Below are positions 12,346 through 61,009 of a stretch of 64,000 nt of DNA, in pieces; positions within the stretch are counted from its first letter, which is position 1; each line of letters begins with the position of its first letter. Source of the DNA: a virus. The notes under the pieces were generated by a model. It ran no database searches. It was not told where the DNA came from and saw only the letters and a program-made list of their open reading frames with translations. The position numbers and the translations under genes are program-made. Where the stretch lies: IMG/VR virus record IMGVR_UViG_3300038705_000018, positions 1 through 64,000 of that record; one strand, given 5' to 3'.

Positions 12346-13155
12346 TTATTTTTTAATATACTCGTACCACCATTGTCTTTCGTCCATCCAAGCTGTAATC
12401 TTATCAAGTTCACCATTAGGTAGTGTCTCAGTTTGTAAGTACGCTAATCCAGTTAATGGATCAGATACAACTTGTCCCTCAGTACCGCGCTCATTCATAG
12501 CATTTACGACTTCCTGGACCAATGAAATGCCAAATCCACCAGATTTAACATATTGATATCCACCATTAGAAACGTTTTGTTCTGGCTGATTCATTTCTGT
12601 AAACCAAGATAAAGGTTTACTTCCGATTAATTCATTCAAATCACACTTACCGATACCAGGCACATTACCTGTTTCAGTATATTGCCAAATATCGCATAGA
12701 TATGCTGGTCTCTTCCCACCATAACGTGGAATCCATACAAAGTCAGCAATTACATTTTCCATTCCAAATGGAGCATACATATGATGCCCGACATATAAAC
12801 CAACTTTTTGAGCACCTAATCGGCGTAATTCATCAATAAATGCTTGTGTGCCCGCTCTCATATCATTCATTGTTTTTACTTCCACATCAGCAACCCAGAC
12901 CGTTGCGCTCTTGTCTCCGCGATTCCAGAAGTCACGAGCTTCTATACGTGCATCATTTTCAGAAACAAAACGACAGAATGCATAGTTACCAAAAGGAATA
13001 CCATGTTGCTTCATAGCTTGTACATACCCCTTATATAATGGATCTATATAATTTGAACCATCTTGTACACGTGTAATAATAAAATCAATATGTTGCTTTG
13101 CTACAGGCCAGTTAATATTACCATTCCATTTTGAAATATCTACAATATTTCCCAT
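12346..13155 (-). CDS. Endolysin, GH25 muramidase with C-terminal wall-binding region
   Basis: [12 protein letters not shown]...[11 protein letters not shown]...GIPFGNYAF is typical of Glyco_hydro_25. Immediately downstream of the holin (ATGA overlap). Confidence 0.85.
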
Positions 13156-40977: not shown

Positions 40978-41610
40978 TTAGTTTGTTTGTTCTATTTTTT
41001 CTACTTTTTCTTGCTCTTCGATTTCAGAGGTTTCTTTTTCAGCCTGTTTAACCCACTTTGTTAATTTCTTAAGTACTTCTCCAGCTTGGTTTAATGTCAA
41101 TTCGCCAACTTCTTTAATACTTAAGTGTCCTTTAATCGTGTCTTCATCCACTTTTCGAAGAGAAGCTAATTTTTTTATGTTTACTTTAATTGCACCAACT
41201 TGTTGAGCAGTAATCATTTCCTCTTGGATCTCTGGTAAATCTTCACCCGCATAGATGTACAATCCTAATCCGTGAAGTGCAATTGCCTTTACTAAGCAAC
41301 GTTGGATACTTGTGTTAATGTCAAAGCTGTTAGGCTCTGCAATCGGCTTGTTCTGATTGTCAAGTATCGGGTGAATCTGACTTAGTGGTATTCCTTGTAC
41401 AGTTACTTCAACTTCTACAAAGTAACCACAATCTGTTTTGAGGTAAGGCACTCCATCAAATCGTTTTACTTCCCATGTAGCTGTTGGATCTACTTCACGA
41501 AGCTTTTTAACTGCCCATGCCCACGATAAGTAATTAAAACGCCCTTTCTTCTCAACATGTCCCGAACAATCTATTTGAGCCAATTTAGAAAAGTAATTTT
41601 CAGTTATCAT
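40978..41610 (-). CDS. Sak/DUF1071-type (Rad52-like) single-strand annealing protein
   Basis: GRFNYLSWAWAVKKLREVDP...WEV motif, and position in the replication/recombination module. Confidence 0.6.
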   Translation of the reverse strand: MITENYFSKLAQIDCSGHVEKKGRFNYLSWAWAVKKLREVDPTATWEVKRFDGVPYLKTDCGYFVEVEVTVQGIPLSQIHPILDNQNKPIAEPNSFDINTSIQRCLVKAIALHGLGLYIYAGEDLPEIQEEMITAQQVGAIKVNIKKLASLRKVDEDTIKGHLSIKEVGELTLNQAGEVLKKLTKWVKQAEKETSEIEEQEKVEKIEQTN

Positions 41611-44957: not shown

Positions 44958-45113
44958 TTATCCCATTCCTGTCCCTGGGTCCATTCTAAGCATAATTTGA
45001 GTTTGAGCATCCTTTGCTACTTGTTTAGGCTGCTCCTTTTGACCTTTAACAGGAGATACATATAATACTCCGACTAAAGCCAAAGTTGTTACTAAAGCTA
45101 GTACTTTTTTCAT
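44958..45113 (-). CDS. Secreted signalling propeptide (AimP/Phr-like), 51 aa
   Basis: Not in the track. Its ATG overlaps the receptor TGA (ATGA). MKKVLALVTTLALVGVLYVSPVKGQKEQPKQVAKDAQTQIMLRMDPGTGMG: signal peptide, then polar pro-region, then a short C-terminal peptide. Confidence 0.65.
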   Translation of the reverse strand: MKKVLALVTTLALVGVLYVSPVKGQKEQPKQVAKDAQTQIMLRMDPGTGMG

Positions 45114-46312
45114 TTAGCATCACCCTTGTATATTATACTATTTTTATTAATATCTACCAATATTTTTCGAGGTAAATAACTATAAAATTTACACCCTTGC
45201 GAGTAGAATAACTCAATTGATTTTTCTAGTAATTTTCTATCTTCCAATGCCATTCCTAAATAACATAATTTCATTGGAGACAGACTACCATTCTCTTTTT
45301 CGTACTTTCTTAATATAGTGGCAGCTTTTTCTTTTTGTCCTGTTACTATATATAGAAGCGCTTTCTCGCCCACATCAAAAATTTGTAAATCATACATATC
45401 CTTTTGATGGATTATTCTAATGTAAGACCTCATATTTAAAAACTCTTTTTTTCGGTTTTCTGCTTTCTCATAGGATAGTTGGTCTAGCATCTCAATCCCT
45501 TTATTTAAATACCATAAAGATTGTTCATAATTTTCAACGTATGATTCACCTAAATATCCTAATGCAGAAATTTTTAATAACCTTAGATAACCTAATTCAT
45601 CATTAACATTCAATATACTATGGCATAGTTCTCTTGATTTTTCTATTTGCTCGTCCATTAGCAATGCATACGCATACCATTCCTTTACACGGCTACTGTA
45701 TATATCTTTTATAAATTGGCTAGGAAGTTCAGATATTTTTTCCTGTAATGTTTGTATATACCCATCTAAAAGTTTAAAATTCCTACAATCATACATAGAA
45801 TATAATGTTAAAATATCAAACATTATTTTAGTTTCTTCATTTTTAAGAACTTTACTCTTTTTCCTACTCTCAGTCTCCGTTAAAAGTTTTTCAGCTGTAA
45901 AAAATTTCTTAGCTCTTAACCAAACGAGTTCATATATATATGCCCATTCGTAAGTTTTAGAGTTATTAGATTCAAAGCCTCTTTGAATCGCAATTCTAAG
46001 GAGTTCCAAATCCCCTAAAGCATTTCCATACTCCATAGCTATTCTTAAATTCTTTTTACTTTTAGTTTTTTTACAAAATTCATGGATCATATAATTCTTT
46101 TCAAGCGGATCTTCATATAATAATTCAACTAACTTTACTACATTTAAAAAATTCAATTCACTTTTCCCTGATAAATTCTTTGAAAACGCAGGGCCACTTA
46201 TTCCAAGTTCTTTTGAAATACTCTCTTGGCTCTTTTTTTGAAAATCAATTTGATCAACAACTTTAAATAACCAATATTTCATTTTGCTCCTCCTTGCCGG
46301 AACAAAAGACAC
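45110..46312 (-). CDS. RRNPP-family receptor (HTH + TPR), AimR-like
   Basis: N-terminal HTH (ISKELGISGPAFSKNLSGK). 400 aa with a helical-repeat body rich in Y/L/E. Translationally coupled propeptide gene. Located next to the phage lysogeny switch. Confidence 0.65.
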   Translation of the reverse strand: MSFVPARRSKMKYWLFKVVDQIDFQKKSQESISKELGISGPAFSKNLSGKSELNFLNVVKLVELLYEDPLEKNYMIHEFCKKTKSKKNLRIAMEYGNALGDLELLRIAIQRGFESNNSKTYEWAYIYELVWLRAKKFFTAEKLLTETESRKKSKVLKNEETKIMFDILTLYSMYDCRNFKLLDGYIQTLQEKISELPSQFIKDIYSSRVKEWYAYALLMDEQIEKSRELCHSILNVNDELGYLRLLKISALGYLGESYVENYEQSLWYLNKGIEMLDQLSYEKAENRKKEFLNMRSYIRIIHQKDMYDLQIFDVGEKALLYIVTGQKEKAATILRKYEKENGSLSPMKLCYLGMALEDRKLLEKSIELFYSQGCKFYSYLPRKILVDINKNSIIYKGDAK

Positions 46313-47430: not shown

Positions 47431-49128
47431 ATGTATATAGACACGATTGAAATAAGCAATTTTAGATCGATTGGAAGCAGCCCACCACTAAAACTAGATA
47501 TTAGTGATATTACCGTTCTGTCAGGAATTAATGATACAGGTAAAACTTCAGCCTTATTAGCCTCATTTATTGGTTTGAATAATGTTTCAACAAAAAATCA
47601 AGAATTATATAAATTATTGGATGGAAGTAAACATCGTAAAGGCTATGCTTTAGACGAATCCGCACAAGCTATTAAGCCTACTTTCAAATGTACGGAAGAA
47701 GATGTAGAAAAAGTATGGGAATACATACAACATAAGGGAATTTTGAAATATATCTTGCAAGAATTAAGGAAAGAAGAGATTAATATTGAGGAAGATACGG
47801 TTAAAGAATTTATTTCAGAAGCTGTAATCACACTAAAAATCCCACTGGATAGTCGACGATTCTCCTTTTACGATAGTTGTGTTGATCTTGTACTTTGGAA
47901 TAAATGTGTTGAGAACTTCTTTAAATACGAAAATATTTTAGAATTGTCAAACTATTTACATCGAGCAATTAATACTGCTGCTGCATTAGAGACATCTATA
48001 AACAACATGAATTGTTTATATGTTCCGGGTGTTACAAGAAGTAATGATCAAATTTTATTCAGAGAAAAAGATCGAAAATCGCAATTAATAGCCTTTTTCA
48101 AAGGGATTTGTTCGGAACAAGGGAAAACTTCCGGGAAATACGACGCTTTTAAGGAATATTTTAAAATTTTACTCCCTGAATTGGTAAGGTTTGAAATAAA
48201 TATTGTTCAAGATAATGAAGAATCTGAGGATATATTTTTAACTTGGAACCATAATGACTGTGAAAAAGAACAACCATTATCCCGAAGTGGTGATGGAATC
48301 TATAATACTATATTTCTTATGGCCAAGGTGCTAAATAATTTTAATGCAATGAATATTGTATTTATTGATGAACCTGAAATAGGATTACATCCATTGCTAC
48401 AGCAAAGATTTATTAAGTTGCTTAGAAAACTTTCTCGTGAATACTCAATAAAATGGGTGTTAGCAACGCATTCTCCCTTTATATTACAGTCTTTAAAAGA
48501 TACAGAGAAACTATATTTAATTAAGCATGATGGTCACCAAACAAATTGTCTGGAAATTGATATCGCTAATAAAGATGTTGTTTTTAGTACTTTAGGTGCT
48601 TATTTGCCTTTAGCTCTTTCTGCCACAGGTGTAATATTTGTTGAGGGACAAACTGAGGCGACCGTTTTAACCATACTATTAGCTAAAGTTGGTTTAAACA
48701 TAGAAAGGGAACGAATAATAATTATCCCTCTTGGTGGTGAAAATCTCTTTCAGATTTCTGCAAAAGATTTAAAAAAATTACATGAAAAAAGTATGGTCAT
48801 TATAGATAGTGATTTATCTAAACCTGAAAAAGAAGGAGGAAATATAAAAAAAATAAAATTAGATTATCAAGCTGAATGTGAAGAAAATAATGTTGAATTC
48901 TTAATGATTAAGGACTATAGAACATTAGAAAATATGTATCCAAAGGATGTTTTAGCGGAAGTTTTAGGTAAAGAAGTTGAAACTCTTGATTATGGAAACT
49001 TTGATGAGGTACCTGGAATTCGTAATAAAATCAAGGTAGGGGAAGAAGTCGCAAATAAAATGTCTAAAGAAGAAGCTGAGCGTTTTCCTTTGATTAAAGA
49101 AATACAAAAATGGTGGAATGAGAAATAA
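47431..49128 (+). CDS. OLD-family nuclease (ABC-type ATPase + TOPRIM)
   Basis: SNFRSIG...LSGINDTGKTS (Walker A), VFIDEPEIGLHP (Walker B), LATHSPF. C-terminal TOPRIM: VIFVEGQTEATVL and MVIIDSD. Confidence 0.85.
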   Translation: MYIDTIEISNFRSIGSSPPLKLDISDITVLSGINDTGKTSALLASFIGLNNVSTKNQELYKLLDGSKHRKGYALDESAQAIKPTFKCTEEDVEKVWEYIQHKGILKYILQELRKEEINIEEDTVKEFISEAVITLKIPLDSRRFSFYDSCVDLVLWNKCVENFFKYENILELSNYLHRAINTAAALETSINNMNCLYVPGVTRSNDQILFREKDRKSQLIAFFKGICSEQGKTSGKYDAFKEYFKILLPELVRFEINIVQDNEESEDIFLTWNHNDCEKEQPLSRSGDGIYNTIFLMAKVLNNFNAMNIVFIDEPEIGLHPLLQQRFIKLLRKLSREYSIKWVLATHSPFILQSLKDTEKLYLIKHDGHQTNCLEIDIANKDVVFSTLGAYLPLALSATGVIFVEGQTEATVLTILLAKVGLNIERERIIIIPLGGENLFQISAKDLKKLHEKSMVIIDSDLSKPEKEGGNIKKIKLDYQAECEENNVEFLMIKDYRTLENMYPKDVLAEVLGKEVETLDYGNFDEVPGIRNKIKVGEEVANKMSKEEAERFPLIKEIQKWWNEK

Positions 49129-49130
49129 TA

Positions 49131-49209
49131 TTTGGATGGGAGTCCAATACATATTATTAAAATTAAAGTGGTTCAAGTCGCAGGAAGGCACCTTAGGGTG
49201 TCTTTTTTT
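49131..49209 (+). repeat. REP-T copy 3, long form
   Basis: TTTGGATGGGAGTCCAATACATATTATTAAAATTAAAGTGGTTCAAGTCGCAGGAAGGCACCTTAGGGTGTC plus a T-run, starting 3 nt after the OLD stop. Confidence 0.85.
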
Positions 49210-49403
49210 ATGATTTAACACAATCATAATCACATTTTGAGGTACTTCTTGTTTTTAGACCTATCATTTTACCTTCCTTTATAAGTCCTATTTTAGTGCT
49301 GAATTTTAAAATATAAATTCATTTTCAATAACTTTATTTCTACAGGTAATATATAATTTGAATATTGATACATTAAAAACAATATAAAAAGGAGTGTATA
49401 TCG

Positions 49404-50702
49404 TTGGAATCATTAAGACGATTTGCTAAGGCTGCATTATATTACTGTAATAGGAATAACAAATGGGATGTAGATATGCATAGTGATAAGCCCTTGAAAA
49501 CTTTATTAGAAAAAATATATGAACACCCTAGATTTAGTGCTATTTTTGAAGTTGAAATAGCAGAAAGTATAATTAATTCGTATCTCGAAGATATACACAT
49601 ACAACAGCAAACAAACTATGGTGATCAAGATGCAGATCAATTTTTAGAATATATATATGAAAATCTTTATATAAATATCAAAGAAAGATGGATCATTTTC
49701 CCTTTAAAAGGAGCATTTCTTTCAAAAACAGTAAAGTATAAAGATTTTATTTTCATTTCAGGGGATAGAAATGAAAAATTAAATACATTAAAAAAAATAT
49801 TTAAAGTGTCATTGAATGAAACGAAAACAAGAATGCAGCATATTGAGAGAAAATCATCTTCTTTTTTACAACATCCATTAGTAGCTATTAGAGTAAAACA
49901 TCAATATAGTTATGTTTTTTATAGGGCAAGACATATAGGACTTTATACAAATTCTATTTTACATGCTATATACTGGGGGAATGTGTATCCTAAATACAAA
50001 TTACCTCTTTTCAGTAATATACATCAAAATGAACATATTAATATTCTCTTAACATGTGGTACTACAGAATATGAATTCAACAACGCACCGCTTAATTTTA
50101 ATGCAAATTGTTTTATAAACTTAGACTGGCTCCTAGAAAAGAAATATATAAAGTTATTGGATCTAATATATCAAGAAATGGTTATGAAAACTCATAACCC
50201 GGTCTCCCAAAAATTTTTGAACGGTATAAATTTTTTTAAAAGAGCTATAGAGGTTGAAAATAGTAATGATATAACTCAAGGATTAGGAACACCTTTATTG
50301 TTGTTAACAATTGCTAGTGAAAATATTCTATTAAAACATAAAGATTCTAAGCGAGACAGATTACGTGTATTATTCCCTTGTTTGGTTAATTGGGATGTCA
50401 TGGATAAGAATGAATTTAGTTCATTAATAAGTCAAATTTATACTTGGAGATCAGAATTTGTACATGCGGGGATAGAGCTGTATAAGGATTATAATGAAGA
50501 TTTTTCATCAGGACCTAACACAAAACAATATATAAATTTTAAAGTAGCGGTATCAAAATTATTATGTAGATCTCCTTATTTCATAAGGCTAGTTAACAAT
50601 CGTTTTGTTAAACAGGATTCAATAAGACATATTGATCTATGGAATACATATTTAGATAATCATTGGAACAGAGGTAAGAGTTTATTAAATAAGGTGGAAT
50701 AG
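49404..50702 (+). CDS. Protein with C-terminal Rx4H (HEPN-like) motif
   Basis: TTG start with AGGAG 8 nt upstream. SQIYTWRSEFVHAG (R at 50448, H at 50463) resembles ApeA/Abi-type HEPN RNase motifs. No NTPase motifs. Confidence 0.5.
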   Translation: MESLRRFAKAALYYCNRNNKWDVDMHSDKPLKTLLEKIYEHPRFSAIFEVEIAESIINSYLEDIHIQQQTNYGDQDADQFLEYIYENLYINIKERWIIFPLKGAFLSKTVKYKDFIFISGDRNEKLNTLKKIFKVSLNETKTRMQHIERKSSSFLQHPLVAIRVKHQYSYVFYRARHIGLYTNSILHAIYWGNVYPKYKLPLFSNIHQNEHINILLTCGTTEYEFNNAPLNFNANCFINLDWLLEKKYIKLLDLIYQEMVMKTHNPVSQKFLNGINFFKRAIEVENSNDITQGLGTPLLLLTIASENILLKHKDSKRDRLRVLFPCLVNWDVMDKNEFSSLISQIYTWRSEFVHAGIELYKDYNEDFSSGPNTKQYINFKVAVSKLLCRSPYFIRLVNNRFVKQDSIRHIDLWNTYLDNHWNRGKSLLNKVE

Positions 50703-50946: not shown

Positions 50947-50973
50947 AAAAGCTCTCTAATTGAGAGCTTTTTT
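50947..50973. terminator. Bidirectional terminator
   Basis: AAAAGCTCTC-TAAT-TGAGAGCTTTT between the convergent 49404..50702 and 51050..51922 genes. Confidence 0.75.
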
Positions 50974-51049: not shown

Positions 51050-51922
51050 CTATTCGAAAATTTGTAAGTTTATTAAATCATCAGGTCCCTCTAATTGAGG
51101 TTCTTGAGCGTAATTTGAGCGCTCTAAAACCATATTTCTTACTAAGAAATATAATTCTTTATAAGTGATTGCACTTTGGCTTCCCATCACGTCAGTTAAT
51201 GCTTTAGTAAAACGGCCATATGTACCTTCATCATATGATACTTGATCTGCTTTACATCCTGCTAATAAAATATGATTCGGTCCTGAAAAAGATGAAAAGT
51301 CTTTTCTAATAGGTTCAAAACCACTCATAATCATTTTTATGTCTTGAATGGTTTGGGTTGGAGGAATGTAACGAGGTTTAATACTTGATAAATCTCTTCT
51401 TTCAACGTTATTAAAACTATTAATTATTGCTTTTACATCCTCAATAGTTCGCGCTTGCGGAATAGAATAATAATTACCAAAGTTCCTTGTACCAGTTCCA
51501 GAATGACAACTATCCAAAATAACCACAAATTTTACACCTTTAGGTATGTTAGATAGTATTGTATTAATTTCATCATCTCTAATAAGATTAGATTGGTCAG
51601 CAAGTGCATCGATGGGTACAATAGCTTCATCCAACATATCTTCCTCATCAATTGGTGGCAAATCCGCTGTCTGTGTTCCGTGTCCCGAGTATGTAAATAA
51701 TCCAATATCCCCAGGTTCTAGTTGATTAACTAGCCATTCCAGTCCTTTGAGAATATTTTTTTTAGTCGCTACTTCCTCAATAAGTAATTGTATATTAGAC
51801 TGATTAAAATCAAATTTTTTAACTAGCGTATTTAAGATCATTGATGCATCGTTTATACAGCCCCCTAACTCATATTTACTGCCTCGATAATTTATACCTG
51901 TAATTAACGCTAATTTCTTCAC
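51050..51922 (-). CDS. Peptidase C14 (metacaspase/orthocaspase-like)
   Basis: ALITGINYRGSKYELGGCINDA, FTYSGHGTQ (catalytic His81) and VVILDSCHSGTG (catalytic Cys139). GTG start with a GGAGGAG RBS. Confidence 0.88.
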   Translation of the reverse strand: MKKLALITGINYRGSKYELGGCINDASMILNTLVKKFDFNQSNIQLLIEEVATKKNILKGLEWLVNQLEPGDIGLFTYSGHGTQTADLPPIDEEDMLDEAIVPIDALADQSNLIRDDEINTILSNIPKGVKFVVILDSCHSGTGTRNFGNYYSIPQARTIEDVKAIINSFNNVERRDLSSIKPRYIPPTQTIQDIKMIMSGFEPIRKDFSSFSGPNHILLAGCKADQVSYDEGTYGRFTKALTDVMGSQSAITYKELYFLVRNMVLERSNYAQEPQLEGPDDLINLQIFE

Positions 51923-52079
51923 TTTACTCCTCCTATTACTAATTTATAAAGTGGACAGAAAATCATTTCTGTCCACTTATAAAAAAACACTTAAATTATA
52001 TCTATAGAGCTTCTATAGACATCCAACTATTTGTAGCTTATTCTTCGATTACAATTGCCTTACTCTGAACTTAACATCA

Positions 52080-52304
52080 TCAAAAAAGTTTAATATTAGC
52101 ATCAATAATCTCCCCAGCGGTTGTTCCAATTGCCGCTCCTACAGGTCCACCAATTACACCACCAATTGCACCAGTAATTGGTGCCGTAGGAATACTTTCA
52201 GTACCTGGAATACCAAAAAAACGTGCCTGAGTTTGTAGGTCACCTTCAACTAAAAGTAACCCTTTTCCATTGATACTTAGTTTTCCAACAACTCTTCCAT
52301 TCAT
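52080..52304 (-). CDS. 74-aa glycine-zipper protein
   Basis: AAGGAGGTGAAAG RBS. C-terminal half is ITGAIGGVIGGPVGAAIGTTAG (GxxxG zipper). 157 nt upstream of the caspase gene on the same strand. Confidence 0.6.
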   Translation of the reverse strand: MNGRVVGKLSINGKGLLLVEGDLQTQARFFGIPGTESIPTAPITGAIGGVIGGPVGAAIGTTAGEIIDANIKLF

Positions 52305-52650
52305 CTTCTTTCACCTCCTTCCACAACAGTATTTACAATTTAATTTAACTAATACATTTTTTTACTATTTTGTTATTTTTAAATAATTATAAATTTTCTT
52401 TATAAGAATAATTGGATGATATAAGGTTATTCTGATAGATTAAATTCTTTATATACATATAATTTTAAAATAATATATATTGATTAATAGTTAATAATAT
52501 TTAATCTAAAAATCTAATCATATATTAACTGATTAAACATTGACTACATTGATGAGTTCTATAAAGAACCCTTTAAAAAGGTATTCAGTCCATTTTTAAC
52601 ATGATTGAATAAAGAATTTAATATGAAAACAGTAACAAAAGAAAAATGGG

Positions 52651-55414: not shown

Positions 55415-55610
55415 ATGTATAAAATAGCCCGACTATTTCCGTAGATGTGCTAAATAGTAACCCCTATTACCATTTATTTAAATATCTCCAAGTCAATATT
55501 ATATAATTTCGATATATTTAAATTATATTTTAATTATATAAGTAGTGCAAAAGACGTTAGGCTTTGTTATCATGTTCTACGAATTAAAATTATTTCAAGG
55601 AGGTTTTTTT

Positions 55611-56273
55611 GTGTTTGATATATTAAAAAAACAATGTCGATTCAATAAGATGTCGGCAATATCGTTAGGGATTTTTGTGCTTTATATGATTTTAAAGCAA
55701 TTTATCGCACTAGTTTATTTCATTAGTGATGAACAGTTTAGCGGGATGAGCATTTCGTTTGACGCAATTGATTTGTTACTTGTTCTAATAATTTATTTTT
55801 ATTATCGTAGATCTAAAGAGCCTTTTACAAATCAAAATAATTTTACGATGAGTTTGCCAAAAAGCTTACTTTTAGGTCTAGTACTAACTGTAGTATGTAA
55901 ATTCCTCCCGCTGTTACTAGCAGATTTTATAAGTTTTCAGTCATCCAATCAAGTTGAACTAGAAAGCCAAGTAACGTTACCAATTTTAGTCTTCGCATTT
56001 TCTGTTGCTCTGGTAGCACCCATTGGTGAAGAAATTGTCCATCGTGGTGTTATACAGCATGGAATTTTTAAAAATTCCTGGTTAGGTGTATTTGTTTCTT
56101 CAGCTATTTTTGCAGGTTTACATGTTAGTCTTCTTTCTTTAGAAGCAATTCCGTATTTCCTTCTGGGAATTGGTTTAGGTTGTACTTATAAGTTAACCGG
56201 GCGTTTATATGTGGGAATTATAATGCACATGATTAATAATTCACTAGCAGTGATTGCTATTTACTATTTTTAA
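55611..56273 (+). CDS. CPBP-family intramembrane protease (CAAX/Abi-type)
   Basis: APIGEEIVHRG (EExxxR), FAGLH and HMINNS motifs, with multiple TM segments. GTG start with GGAGG 7 nt upstream. Confidence 0.8.
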   Translation: MFDILKKQCRFNKMSAISLGIFVLYMILKQFIALVYFISDEQFSGMSISFDAIDLLLVLIIYFYYRRSKEPFTNQNNFTMSLPKSLLLGLVLTVVCKFLPLLLADFISFQSSNQVELESQVTLPILVFAFSVALVAPIGEEIVHRGVIQHGIFKNSWLGVFVSSAIFAGLHVSLLSLEAIPYFLLGIGLGCTYKLTGRLYVGIIMHMINNSLAVIAIYYF

Positions 56274-60244: not shown

Positions 60245-61009
60245 CTACTTTAAATCATACAGATCTGAAGGAATAGCCTGTACATTAATATCAAATTTTT
60301 TAAGAACTGCATTTACAACATCAACAAACCAAGACGCTGCACCAGGATAAACATAAACATTTCCAATCAAATCTTTTAGATTTACTTGAATATTCTTCCC
60401 TATCTTATGTTCATCACTAACATCATATTGTGAAGGTATAGAAACAAACCTTACTTCTTGTTCATGACTAAACGAAACTCTCTTTGTAAAAAACGGCTCA
60501 ATATAATGTTTTTTAAGATTATTTTCCGTAGTATTATCCAAATATCTAACTTTACCAATAAAAACTTCATCCTCGCAAGCATTCAAGCTCTTTTTCACCC
60601 TATCAAAAGTAGTTTGAATCGCTATTCCTTCTTTACCATTAGAATACAAATCCCACATGGCTGCTGATTCATACTCATTTAAATGCCAACAGTTAATAAA
60701 AATCTTTTTACGCTGTTCATCCAGTCCTATACTCAACTCTTTTTTAAACTGTTCTATCTCAATTTGCTCAGCATACTCTCTATATTCACTCATTTCCTCC
60801 ATTTTCATTACTCTATTTAATAATGCAAATGCATCCTGATCTGTTTGGTTAAATAATTTACCCTCAAATGTATCTCTAAAATTATCCGATCTACAAAAGA
60901 AGATTGACTGCGTAGATAACAAACTTACTAACTTAGTAAAATCCATATATCGCCATAGTTTAGCATCACCTTTTATATCTGAATTAATCCATTGACTCTC
61001 TACAAACAC
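60245..61009 (-). CDS. DUF2971-like protein
   Basis: N-terminus ...LWRYMDFTKLVSLLSTQSIFFCRSDNFRDTFEG is typical of DUF2971. Own terminator at about 60195..60229. Confidence 0.6.
   Translation of the reverse strand: MFVESQWINSDIKGDAKLWRYMDFTKLVSLLSTQSIFFCRSDNFRDTFEGKLFNQTDQDAFALLNRVMKMEEMSEYREYAEQIEIEQFKKELSIGLDEQRKKIFINCWHLNEYESAAMWDLYSNGKEGIAIQTTFDRVKKSLNACEDEVFIGKVRYLDNTTENNLKKHYIEPFFTKRVSFSHEQEVRFVSIPSQYDVSDEHKIGKNIQVNLKDLIGNVYVYPGAASWFVDVVNAVLKKFDINVQAIPSDLYDLK

Follow-up and report, generated by a model that had tools for sequence, protein, structure and literature searches.

Whether a bacterial caspase-like protease can have a small substrate of its own, encoded beside it, is the question raised by two adjacent genes in a stretch of viral DNA of 64,000 nucleotides (IMG/VR virus record IMGVR_UViG_3300038705_000018, positions 1 to 64,000), the whole of which is referred to here as the window. 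One of the two encodes a 290-aa metacaspase-like C14 peptidase (the caspase in what follows) and the other a 74-aa peptide with a glycine-rich C-terminal half. A preliminary description of the window had proposed that the protease cuts the peptide after R28, releasing a membrane-active fragment, and that the pair is a minimal pore-forming suicide or defence module distinct from gasdermin systems. Our own reading, to which we give somewhat less than an even chance, is that the pair is a module of precursor peptide and processing protease carried on mobile elements, and that the freed peptide acts on the membrane of the cell that produces it. Judged from sequence comparison, the 74-aa peptide is not an orphan but a member of a small unnamed family.

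The features originally described for the pair are all present. The peptide gene, identified by open reading frame (ORF) calling, occupies positions 52080..52304 of the minus strand (ATG start, stop codon at 52080-52082) and is preceded, 6 nt 5′ of the ATG, by a near-perfect Shine-Dalgarno sequence, GAAGGAGGTGA (52311..52321, minus strand), read from the sequence. The caspase gene (51050..51922, minus strand), which starts with GTG, lies 157 nt downstream on the same strand and encodes a C14 peptidase with an intact catalytic dyad. Its Shine-Dalgarno sequence, AGGAGGAG (51927..51934, minus strand), was likewise read from the sequence and is kept in the alignment of the hairpin region considered below. 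The peptide reads MNGRVVGKLSINGKGLLLVEGDLQTQAR up to R28 and FFGIPGTESIPTAPITGAIGGVIGGPVGAAIGTTAGEIIDANIKLF thereafter. Its basic residues are R4, K8, K14, R28 and K72, and R28 is, as noted previously, the only one separating the N-terminal half from the glycine zipper, which has the register G48-G52-G56-G60-G64 and a core with six overlapping GxxxG motifs. The AlphaFold2 (AF2) prediction made with the small family alignment consists of a β-hairpin (residues 3-11/14-21; predicted local distance difference test score, pLDDT, 71-79), a disordered stretch (residues 24-42) that includes R28, and a low-confidence helix (residues 44-72).

Relatives of the peptide came to light in the DNA surrounding the closest homologues of the caspase, as small ORFs beside the caspase gene whose products have the N-terminal half of the window peptide in common with it. 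A profile search of 5.8 billion proteins returned only eight clusters, all from the Bacillus cereus group. The context could be inspected for seven of the eight, and in each of these the peptide gene is within approximately 1.3 kb of a gene for a C14 peptidase. Hence, the linkage that had been predicted for relatives of the pair holds for all those with an inspectable context. The peptide genes lie on either side of the caspase gene and on both strands, yet stay within that distance, and the carriers, which are plasmids and contigs of the B. cereus group and a prophage of Bacillus velezensis, have between one and five small ORFs near a homologous caspase. On this comparison the 74-aa ORF is more than a chance reading frame, because independent lineages keep it as a protein (26-47 % identity) next to homologous caspases. 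The pairing persists across changed flanks (a chromosomal island, a 457-kb plasmid, a 5.8-kb plasmid and the B. velezensis prophage), at caspase identities of 51-60 % (BLASTP) and at leader identities of 14-63 %. On contigs that encode the identical 74-aa protein, a block of genes for 165 aa, 74 aa, C14 and 432 aa proteins is kept and the outer flanks differ. The pair is located at prophage ends or in variable islands.

The family alignment divides the peptide into a leader (residues 1-28; 52221-52304, minus strand) and a payload (residues 29-74; 52083-52220, minus strand). Members share the N-terminal motif VVGKIxlNGKxLLLVE...N-x-R, the Arg at its end aligning with R28, and the consensus of the leader is approximately x(0-13)-G-K-V-V-G-K-I-E-L-N-G-K-Q-L-L-L-V-E-x2-Q-x2-N-x-R. 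Residues G13, K14 and E20 (window numbering) are invariant among aligned members, and the junction Arg is found in 11 of the 11, though MAFFT places that of one relative, P0132, one column off. The part that follows the junction Arg is hypervariable and could not be aligned. Beside glycine zippers, it includes short payloads with Cys residues, as C-x5-C, C-x6-C or a Cys-rich tail (GIINIPWPIDFCKTTGLC, GMLPGMLPDNIFCFLNGTC, ...CPLGKSCKFYV, ...CAGLPWVC... and ...CGCIDPTECCC), and a third kind consisting of short amphipathic tails that end I-x-I/L-K/D-L/I-F. The net charge of the payloads ranges from 0 to -5, so that every payload is neutral or anionic.

A copy of the leader was also seen in a much larger protein. 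A 654-aa hemopexin-like protein with hemopexin-fold, lectin-like repeats (L093 8899-10860; L100 1561-3525) ends in approximately 45 residues that copy the peptide leader (TVVGEILLDEKKLLLVEVISHKNSQK) and a tail, ...DYVKKDVDLF. Its gene is directly upstream of the caspase gene in L100 and 3 kb away from it on the Bacillus thuringiensis plasmid pH3-101. Since the leader-like module stands here at the C-terminus of another protein it behaves as a portable tag, and the 654-aa protein itself, being so tagged, may be a large substrate.

Among the relatives, P0132 is the closest, sharing 47 % identity with the window peptide and having, like it, a glycine zipper with a repeated GxxxG register. It is encoded on a 5.8-kb Mob/Rep plasmid of Bacillus toyonensis, the cargo of which is P0132, the caspase and a DUF3967 protein. 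The plasmid is represented by two permuted assemblies (L096 and L097), and when the MerR/DUF3967 protein is counted with the Mob_Pre relaxase and the RepL-like Rep, the pair is its sole cargo, which makes it a convenient natural minimal system. Family peptides are also encoded in loci L091 and L095 of B. thuringiensis/B. toyonensis, the latter with five around a single caspase, and B. thuringiensis NVKX has one peptide ORF beside its caspase. In an unbiased tblastn comparison against 72,556 plasmids, two peptides of the family used as queries retrieved only the plasmid of Bacillus sp. ZJS3, where the matches flank the caspase on both sides; it has three peptide ORFs, of which one, on the opposite strand, is unannotated. 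The member in the B. velezensis prophage is a divergent one of 54 aa, encoded 9 nt upstream of the caspase and directly 3′ of holin-amidase genes, and the caspase shares 51 % identity with that of the window by BLASTP and 58 % in a global alignment. In the same prophage a 47-aa ORF 3′ of the caspase (L103 5901-6044) combines a single hydrophobic helix with a strongly basic tail (..IVLIIAGIVTIIKNIY...KKRSRRVSKKR) and could be a small partner in the membrane or a protein of the immunity type; it has no counterpart in the window. Whether a 63-aa ORF in a prophage of Paenibacillus polymyxa, found in the same position beside an integrase gene and together with a strong hairpin, belongs to the family is uncertain.

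Beyond these relatives, searches returned little. The 74-aa peptide matched no model in Pfam, PADLOC, NCBIfam or PHROGs, and the named glycine-zipper families (PF13441, PF13488, PF05433 and PF10439) stayed below their gathering scores, the top scores being 10-15 bits against cutoffs of 25-30. A word-indexed homology search with the peptide gave only the self-match. An exhaustive HMMER search added repeats of giant bactofilin/Por-tail proteins, which were taken as repeat or compositional resemblance. One of these giant bactofilin-domain proteins, P0122 (2832 aa), has between residues about 1100 and 2000 some ten tandem repeats of the pattern G.L.I.G.G.S.IQ.DL.V.G.F...NS.P...I.G that match residues 7-53 of the peptide (summed E=3.5e-12), and this could reflect either convergence of β-helix-like repeats or a remote ancestry of the leader. 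At the nucleotide level, the locus had no match in phage or plasmid DNA. The peptide profile gave no match in two metagenome scans, and in a viral scan it matched only the identical locus, apart from a chance hit within a phage protein of 1609 aa. No consistent partner emerged from the glycine-zipper ORFs next to 80 distant caspase homologues, and a hidden Markov model (HMM) of the leader had no match in those 80 loci or in 79 other viral loci.

The enzyme, by comparison, is readily classified. It matches PF00656 with 118 bits (cutoff 21.4; E=6e-34), and the residues of the dyad, H81 (in YSGHG) and C139 (in DSCHSG), are invariant in an alignment of 30 homologues. Profile matches among proteins of known structure were to Yca1, AtMC4, AtMC9 and TbMCA2. 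The AF2 model (pLDDT 88.6) has the caspase/hemoglobinase fold with p20 and p10 in one chain, and its top Foldseek matches were AtMC4, AtMC9, GSU0716, Yca1 and TbMCA2 (E 1e-13 to 1e-22), led by AtMC4 and AtMC9. Hundreds of relatives exist, the closest of which (45-71 % identity) were inspected for the surrounding DNA. The S1-pocket residues C22, D25, S79, D137, S229 and D231 are conserved. In TbMCA2 the pocket specific for basic residues is reported to be formed by Cys92, Asp95, Ser156 and Asp211 (PMC4357240), to which C22, D25, S79 and D137 correspond in a mapping made by motif spacing and not from a printed alignment, and in AtMC4 by Ser84, Asp137, Ser350 and Asp352 (PMC7206013), which correspond in a profile alignment to S79, D137, S229 and D231. 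The caspase is therefore of the metacaspase type with an acidic S1 pocket, and, going by these residues, specificity for Arg/Lys is expected. Two further features bear on its control. The linker between p20 and p10 (approximately residues 142-215), which is conserved though of low confidence in the model, includes a conserved basic site, KPR184-YIPP, recognizable as [KR]-R-[YF]-x-P-P even among distant homologues, and an acidic loop, D92-E-E-D-M-L-D-E99, is conserved as well. From the loop and the basic site we infer that the enzyme may be under the control of Ca2+ or of self-cleavage, in the manner of type II metacaspases. Neither the peptide nor the caspase has a signal peptide; the leader is without a hydrophobic signal region, and the N-terminus of the caspase is β-strand 1 of the fold in the AF2 model, which accounts for the lack of one there.

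Between the two genes lies an inverted repeat, the arms of which, AAGTGGACA and TGTCCACTT, are separated by 12 nt (51949..51978, minus strand; AAGTGGACAGAAAATCATTTCTGTCCACTT in full). The hairpin that had been noted here is real and conserved. No match was obtained in any of 100 shuffles of the window, and the intergenic RNA folds better than its own shuffles (z = -3.7). Across four lineages the arms, AAGTGGACA and TGTCCACTT(TA), are invariant, the loop of 10-18 nt and the flanks are variable, and the end of the hairpin is 11-17 nt ahead of the ribosome-binding site (RBS) of the caspase gene in every one of the four. A different strong hairpin occupies the same place ahead of the caspase gene of P. 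polymyxa. A scan for consensus terminators did not call the intergenic hairpin, which has no proper T-run. The hairpin probably acts as a leaky terminator, or as a stem in the mRNA, and so keeps the ratio of peptide to protease high; alternatively, the invariant arms could be a protein-binding site. The same scan did identify an intrinsic-terminator-like hairpin with a T-run at 50947..50971 (minus strand), which closes the two-gene unit.

How the pair might work can be set out from these elements. The 28-residue leader, with its predicted hairpin, would serve as the recognition element for the adjacent cytoplasmic peptidase, which would cut after R28 in the context N/Q-small-R and free the 46-residue glycine-zipper peptide F29-F74. 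Such a cut at the end of the leader, the step with the best comparative support, is plausible because of the synteny, the position of the Arg at the boundary of the conserved and variable parts, the flexible surroundings of R28, the S1 pocket and two precedents, namely the maturation of PROPEP1 by AtMC4, which cuts after Arg69 (PMC7206013), and the requirement of bacterial caspase-like proteases for Arg at P1 (bioRxiv 10.1101/2024.10.24.620036). The site proposed at the outset has thus been strengthened as a prediction, by an Arg kept in all relatives and an acidic pocket. The strong RBS of the peptide gene, together with the conserved hairpin ahead of the protease gene, suggests that substrate is made in large excess over enzyme. 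A trigger, for example an influx of Ca2+ or self-cleavage of the linker, would switch the protease on as in type II metacaspases, and the freed peptide, until then a latent toxic effector, would attack the membrane of its producer from inside. Action inside the cell is the most likely because no signal peptide, exporter or immunity gene was found, even on the 5.8-kb plasmid. The plasmid or prophage could benefit via exclusion or abortive infection, or via addiction. An internal latent toxin is favoured by the anionic payloads and by the positions of the pair at prophage ends and, in the window, in a variable island beside an OLD nuclease gene.

A number of observations weigh against this reading, and particularly against the part that concerns the membrane. 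Only 3 of the 12 payloads are glycine zippers (those of the window peptide, P0132 and P0129), the rest being of the Cys-loop or amphipathic kinds, and the payload in the window, apart from being anionic, is borderline as a membrane segment, with a top 19-residue hydropathy of 1.44. Four payloads have C-x5/6-C pairs, and these suggest disulfide loops and hence a life outside the cell. Such diversity of payloads, with up to five paralogues per protease, is seen more typically among bacteriocin-like peptides that are secreted. Of the Bacillales caspase homologues examined, about half have no nearby peptide (L001, L002, L092, L094 and L101), and therefore the enzyme is not strictly dependent on the peptide, nor is its clade restricted to it. 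The divergence of the leaders correlates weakly, and not significantly, with that of the caspases (rho 0.40, p 0.13). The OLD and 432-aa genes are not conserved partners beyond near-identical loci, and no sensor or trigger gene was found linked to the pair. A pore, suicide or defence role is consequently much less certain than the processing, and the minimal pore of the preliminary description does not fit the family as a whole. Nothing was found that ties the pair to phage sensing: no TIR, CHAT, NLR, CBASS or gasdermin partner was found among the neighbours of the caspase with Pfam and PADLOC or in the loci of relatives, PADLOC matched only the caspase, with a generic model, and the island genes are unlinked to the pair elsewhere. 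Bacteriocin-like and inhibitor or antitoxin roles fit the data about as well as defence does.

If the processing is as proposed but the product is exported, the peptides would be leader-bearing, unmodified bacteriocin-like or signalling peptides with the C14 enzyme as their leader peptidase, and a zipper payload, like class IIb/IIc bacteriocins or Gly-rich microcins, would hit competitors. We regard this as unlikely, though several observations favour it. A conserved leader followed by a core that is hypervariable would be expected of such a system, as would a locus with several paralogous precursors (as many as five, in L095) and the C-x5-C and C-x6-C cores that resemble disulfide loops; P0132 shows a sub-threshold likeness to the Bacteriocin_IIc and Gly-zipper models, and the genes are carried on small and large plasmids near toxin-like genes (a weakly Mpf2Ba1-like neighbour and the hemopexin-like protein). 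A leaky hairpin separating structural and processing genes, such as the one found here, is moreover the usual layout of a bacteriocin operon. What such a system would also require was looked for in every locus, including the 5.8-kb plasmid, and neither an ABC (ATP-binding cassette) or C39 exporter nor a double-glycine site was found in any; no immunity gene is conserved across the loci, and none is present on the 5.8-kb plasmid. A signal peptide is lacking in the protease, none of the cores is cationic (all are neutral to anionic), and the Rce1-like (CPBP) genes near the pairs in the window and in L095 are not consistently linked.

The order of the genes and the hairpin also fit the layout of a type II toxin-antitoxin (TA) pair, in which a small gene with a strong RBS comes first and an attenuating hairpin precedes the enzyme. 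The caspase would then be a promiscuous Arg-specific toxin and the small protein a pseudo-substrate inhibitor that holds R28 in the S1 pocket, so that loss or consumption of the peptide frees the protease and growth stops. Carriage on a small plasmid and on prophages would suit such a pair, AtMC4 is self-inhibited by a basic residue in its own S1 pocket (PMC7206013), bacterial caspases are able to kill by indiscriminate cuts after Arg (bioRxiv 10.1101/2024.10.24.620036), and the leader-like module fused to the C-terminus of the 654-aa protein could be a portable caspase-binding tag. However, several paralogues with unrelated C-terminal parts for one enzyme are hard to reconcile with an antitoxin, many homologous caspases have no such peptide, and it is not obvious what an inhibitor would do with a glycine zipper of 46 residues, so that we consider this explanation distinctly improbable. 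That the ORF and the caspase gene have no functional link, being co-inherited neighbours on related mobile DNA, and that the conserved Arg is structural, appears more improbable still, and only slightly credible. All clear members come from one genus-level group, and related plasmids and prophages would inflate the co-occurrence, but the pairing survives a complete change of flanks together with divergence of both caspase and leader, and peptide genes on both sides and both strands are always within approximately 1.3 kb of the caspase.

Returning to the precursor and processing protease, its closest counterpart in mechanism is the plant MC4-PROPEP1 system and its closest counterpart in layout the leader-peptide bacteriocin operon. 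With AtMC4-PROPEP1 it has in common the protease family, the closest solved fold, a single p20-linker-p10 chain and the acidic S1 pocket, as well as a small precursor from which a single cut after Arg releases a bioactive C-terminal peptide (PMC7206013), this last being a prediction here. In plants the genes for the two partners are not linked, damage-induced Ca2+ acts as the trigger and Pep1 serves as the ligand of a receptor, whereas in the loci described here the genes of the candidate substrates lie beside that of the enzyme on mobile elements of bacteria, and the substrates have a dedicated leader and diverse payloads. Class II bacteriocins and Gly-rich microcins similarly have a conserved leader, a hypervariable core that is GxxxG-rich or forms a disulfide loop, several precursors per locus and plasmid carriage. 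Here, however, the leader ends in N-x-R rather than Gly-Gly, the place of the C39 ABC transporter is taken by a cytoplasmic C14 peptidase, neither an exporter nor an immunity gene was found and the cores are not cationic. A double-glycine bacteriocin was rejected on the lack of a GG site and a C39 exporter.

In bacterial gasdermin operons too, a caspase-family protease adjoins a latent membrane-active product, one cut is proposed to release it, and the setting is mobile or defence DNA. The differences are that no gasdermin-fold protein is encoded beside the caspase and the unit holds no other candidate gene, that the peptide has 74 residues rather than about 250, that the conserved piece removed would be N-terminal and not a C-terminal inhibitory tail, and that most payloads are not membrane-like. 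The contention that the pair is distinct from gasdermin systems is thus borne out, and a gasdermin system was rejected on the fold and on the N-terminal position of the part removed. The caspases of type IV Thoeris and the CRISPR-associated PCaspase are likewise bacterial and caspase-like, strict for Arg at P1 and used in defence (bioRxiv 10.1101/2024.10.24.620036). They differ in being activated by a TIR-made nucleotide or a CHAT protease and in degrading many proteins, whereas the caspase here has no TIR or CHAT partner and is linked to a dedicated family of small substrates; with no TIR or SAVED-CHAT activator among the neighbours, a system of either kind was rejected.

Bacterial caspase-like proteases are executioners in phage defence and have been described as promiscuous enzymes or as activators of gasdermins. 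Dedicated small substrates addressed by a leader would, if the proposed processing occurs, be a third mode for bacterial caspases. Nothing in the literature searched describes a C14 peptidase of bacteria that is paired with a family of leader peptides, with a bacteriocin or with a glycine zipper. Tentatively, and with doubt slightly outweighing belief, we see in the pair the first bacterial caspase-family protease with a genetically linked family of leader-tagged substrates, a mobile system of caspase-matured peptides in which one protease recognizes a portable β-hairpin leader, which is cut off after an invariant Arg, and the payloads (zipper, Cys-loop, amphipathic and possibly the tail of the 654-aa toxin-like protein) are interchangeable. 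It would then parallel, in bacteria, the metacaspase-PROPEP signalling of plants and provide a new way of making ribosomal peptide toxins or effectors, and would offer a simple two-gene model of how metacaspases recognize their substrates; the 28-residue tag with its one scissile Arg could serve as a portable cleavage tag. Several of the family peptides are missing from annotations, and the system would reveal a pool of unannotated small peptides on B. cereus-group plasmids and prophages, with possible functions as toxins, antimicrobials or signals. Standard searches do not see the family, and synteny can rescue such orphan small ORFs.

Other small or adjacent partners were observed with relatives of the caspase. 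Five distant standalone caspases (30-38 % identity), one from an archaeal metagenome-assembled genome and four from viral contigs (L078, L123, L130, L157 and L173), have approximately 50-90 nt upstream of them a different conserved protein of 80-100 aa, with the motif ...IITEDIVFQHISSPLG..SPFDKALA.RD...FPG.G.FGPGGGPL, which is itself preceded by a second protein of approximately 70 aa. Small dedicated partners may thus be a general theme of the caspase clade. In Paenibacillus senegalimassiliensis the position directly upstream of the homologous caspase is occupied by a gene for a 411-aa protein (L002 4745-5980) that by eye resembles a trypsin-like protease with Ala/Gly-rich hydrophobic C-terminal segments, hence another partner in the same position. 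In four lineages (L088 6038-6628; L090 2616-3206; L092 6006-6596; L093 6315-6905), whether or not leader peptides are present, a gene for a 196-aa Peptidase_C92 protein (a YiiX-like permuted papain-like amidase) lies no more than approximately 1.5 kb from the caspase; the window has none. In two loci (L095 8301-9713 and L101 6412-7896) the caspase adjoins a protein of 471/495 aa with no Pfam match, weakly like the MACPF pore-forming pesticidal protein Mpf2Ba1 and like Aeg-L (E 0.008-0.01), and the caspase may be located in toxin islands of B. thuringiensis-type plasmids.

The surroundings of the pair in the window are only partly as first described. The OLD gene (47431-49128, plus strand) and the DUF2971 gene (60245-61009) of the island and the adjacent prophage were confirmed, and the HEPN and HNH labels were confirmed by no HMM. 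The OLD gene encodes a 565-aa ATPase-TOPRIM protein, for which the top PADLOC models were AriA, Old and GajA, and is followed on the plus strand by the gene for the 432-aa protein, the two together spanning 47431-50702. The 432-aa protein has no family match, only an Rx4H-like string (RSEFVH). Its gene is beside the caspase in all near-identical loci, which is not so for the OLD gene. The OLD, 432-aa and 165-aa BLIP-like genes were considered as parts of the module and rejected, as they are found only in near-identical loci (OLD in the window only) and are absent from other lineages. Members of the CPBP family are often associated with bacteriocin immunity, and in two lineages Rce1-like/CPBP intramembrane protease genes (55545-56273, plus strand, in the window; 567-995 in L095) are separated from the peptide genes by approximately 3-4 kb, with no consistent linkage in other loci. 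The prophage lies to the left of the pair, at roughly 12-46 kb, and is marked by genes for a GH25 (PlyG) lysin (12346-13155), Sak (40978-41610) and AimR (45110-46312, minus strand; PF22871, E=8e-42). The last of these belongs to an arbitrium-type module at the lysogeny end of the prophage (44958-46312, minus strand), in which a 51-aa AimP-like secreted peptide, with the C-terminus ...MDPGTGMG, comes after the 400-aa AimR-like regulator.

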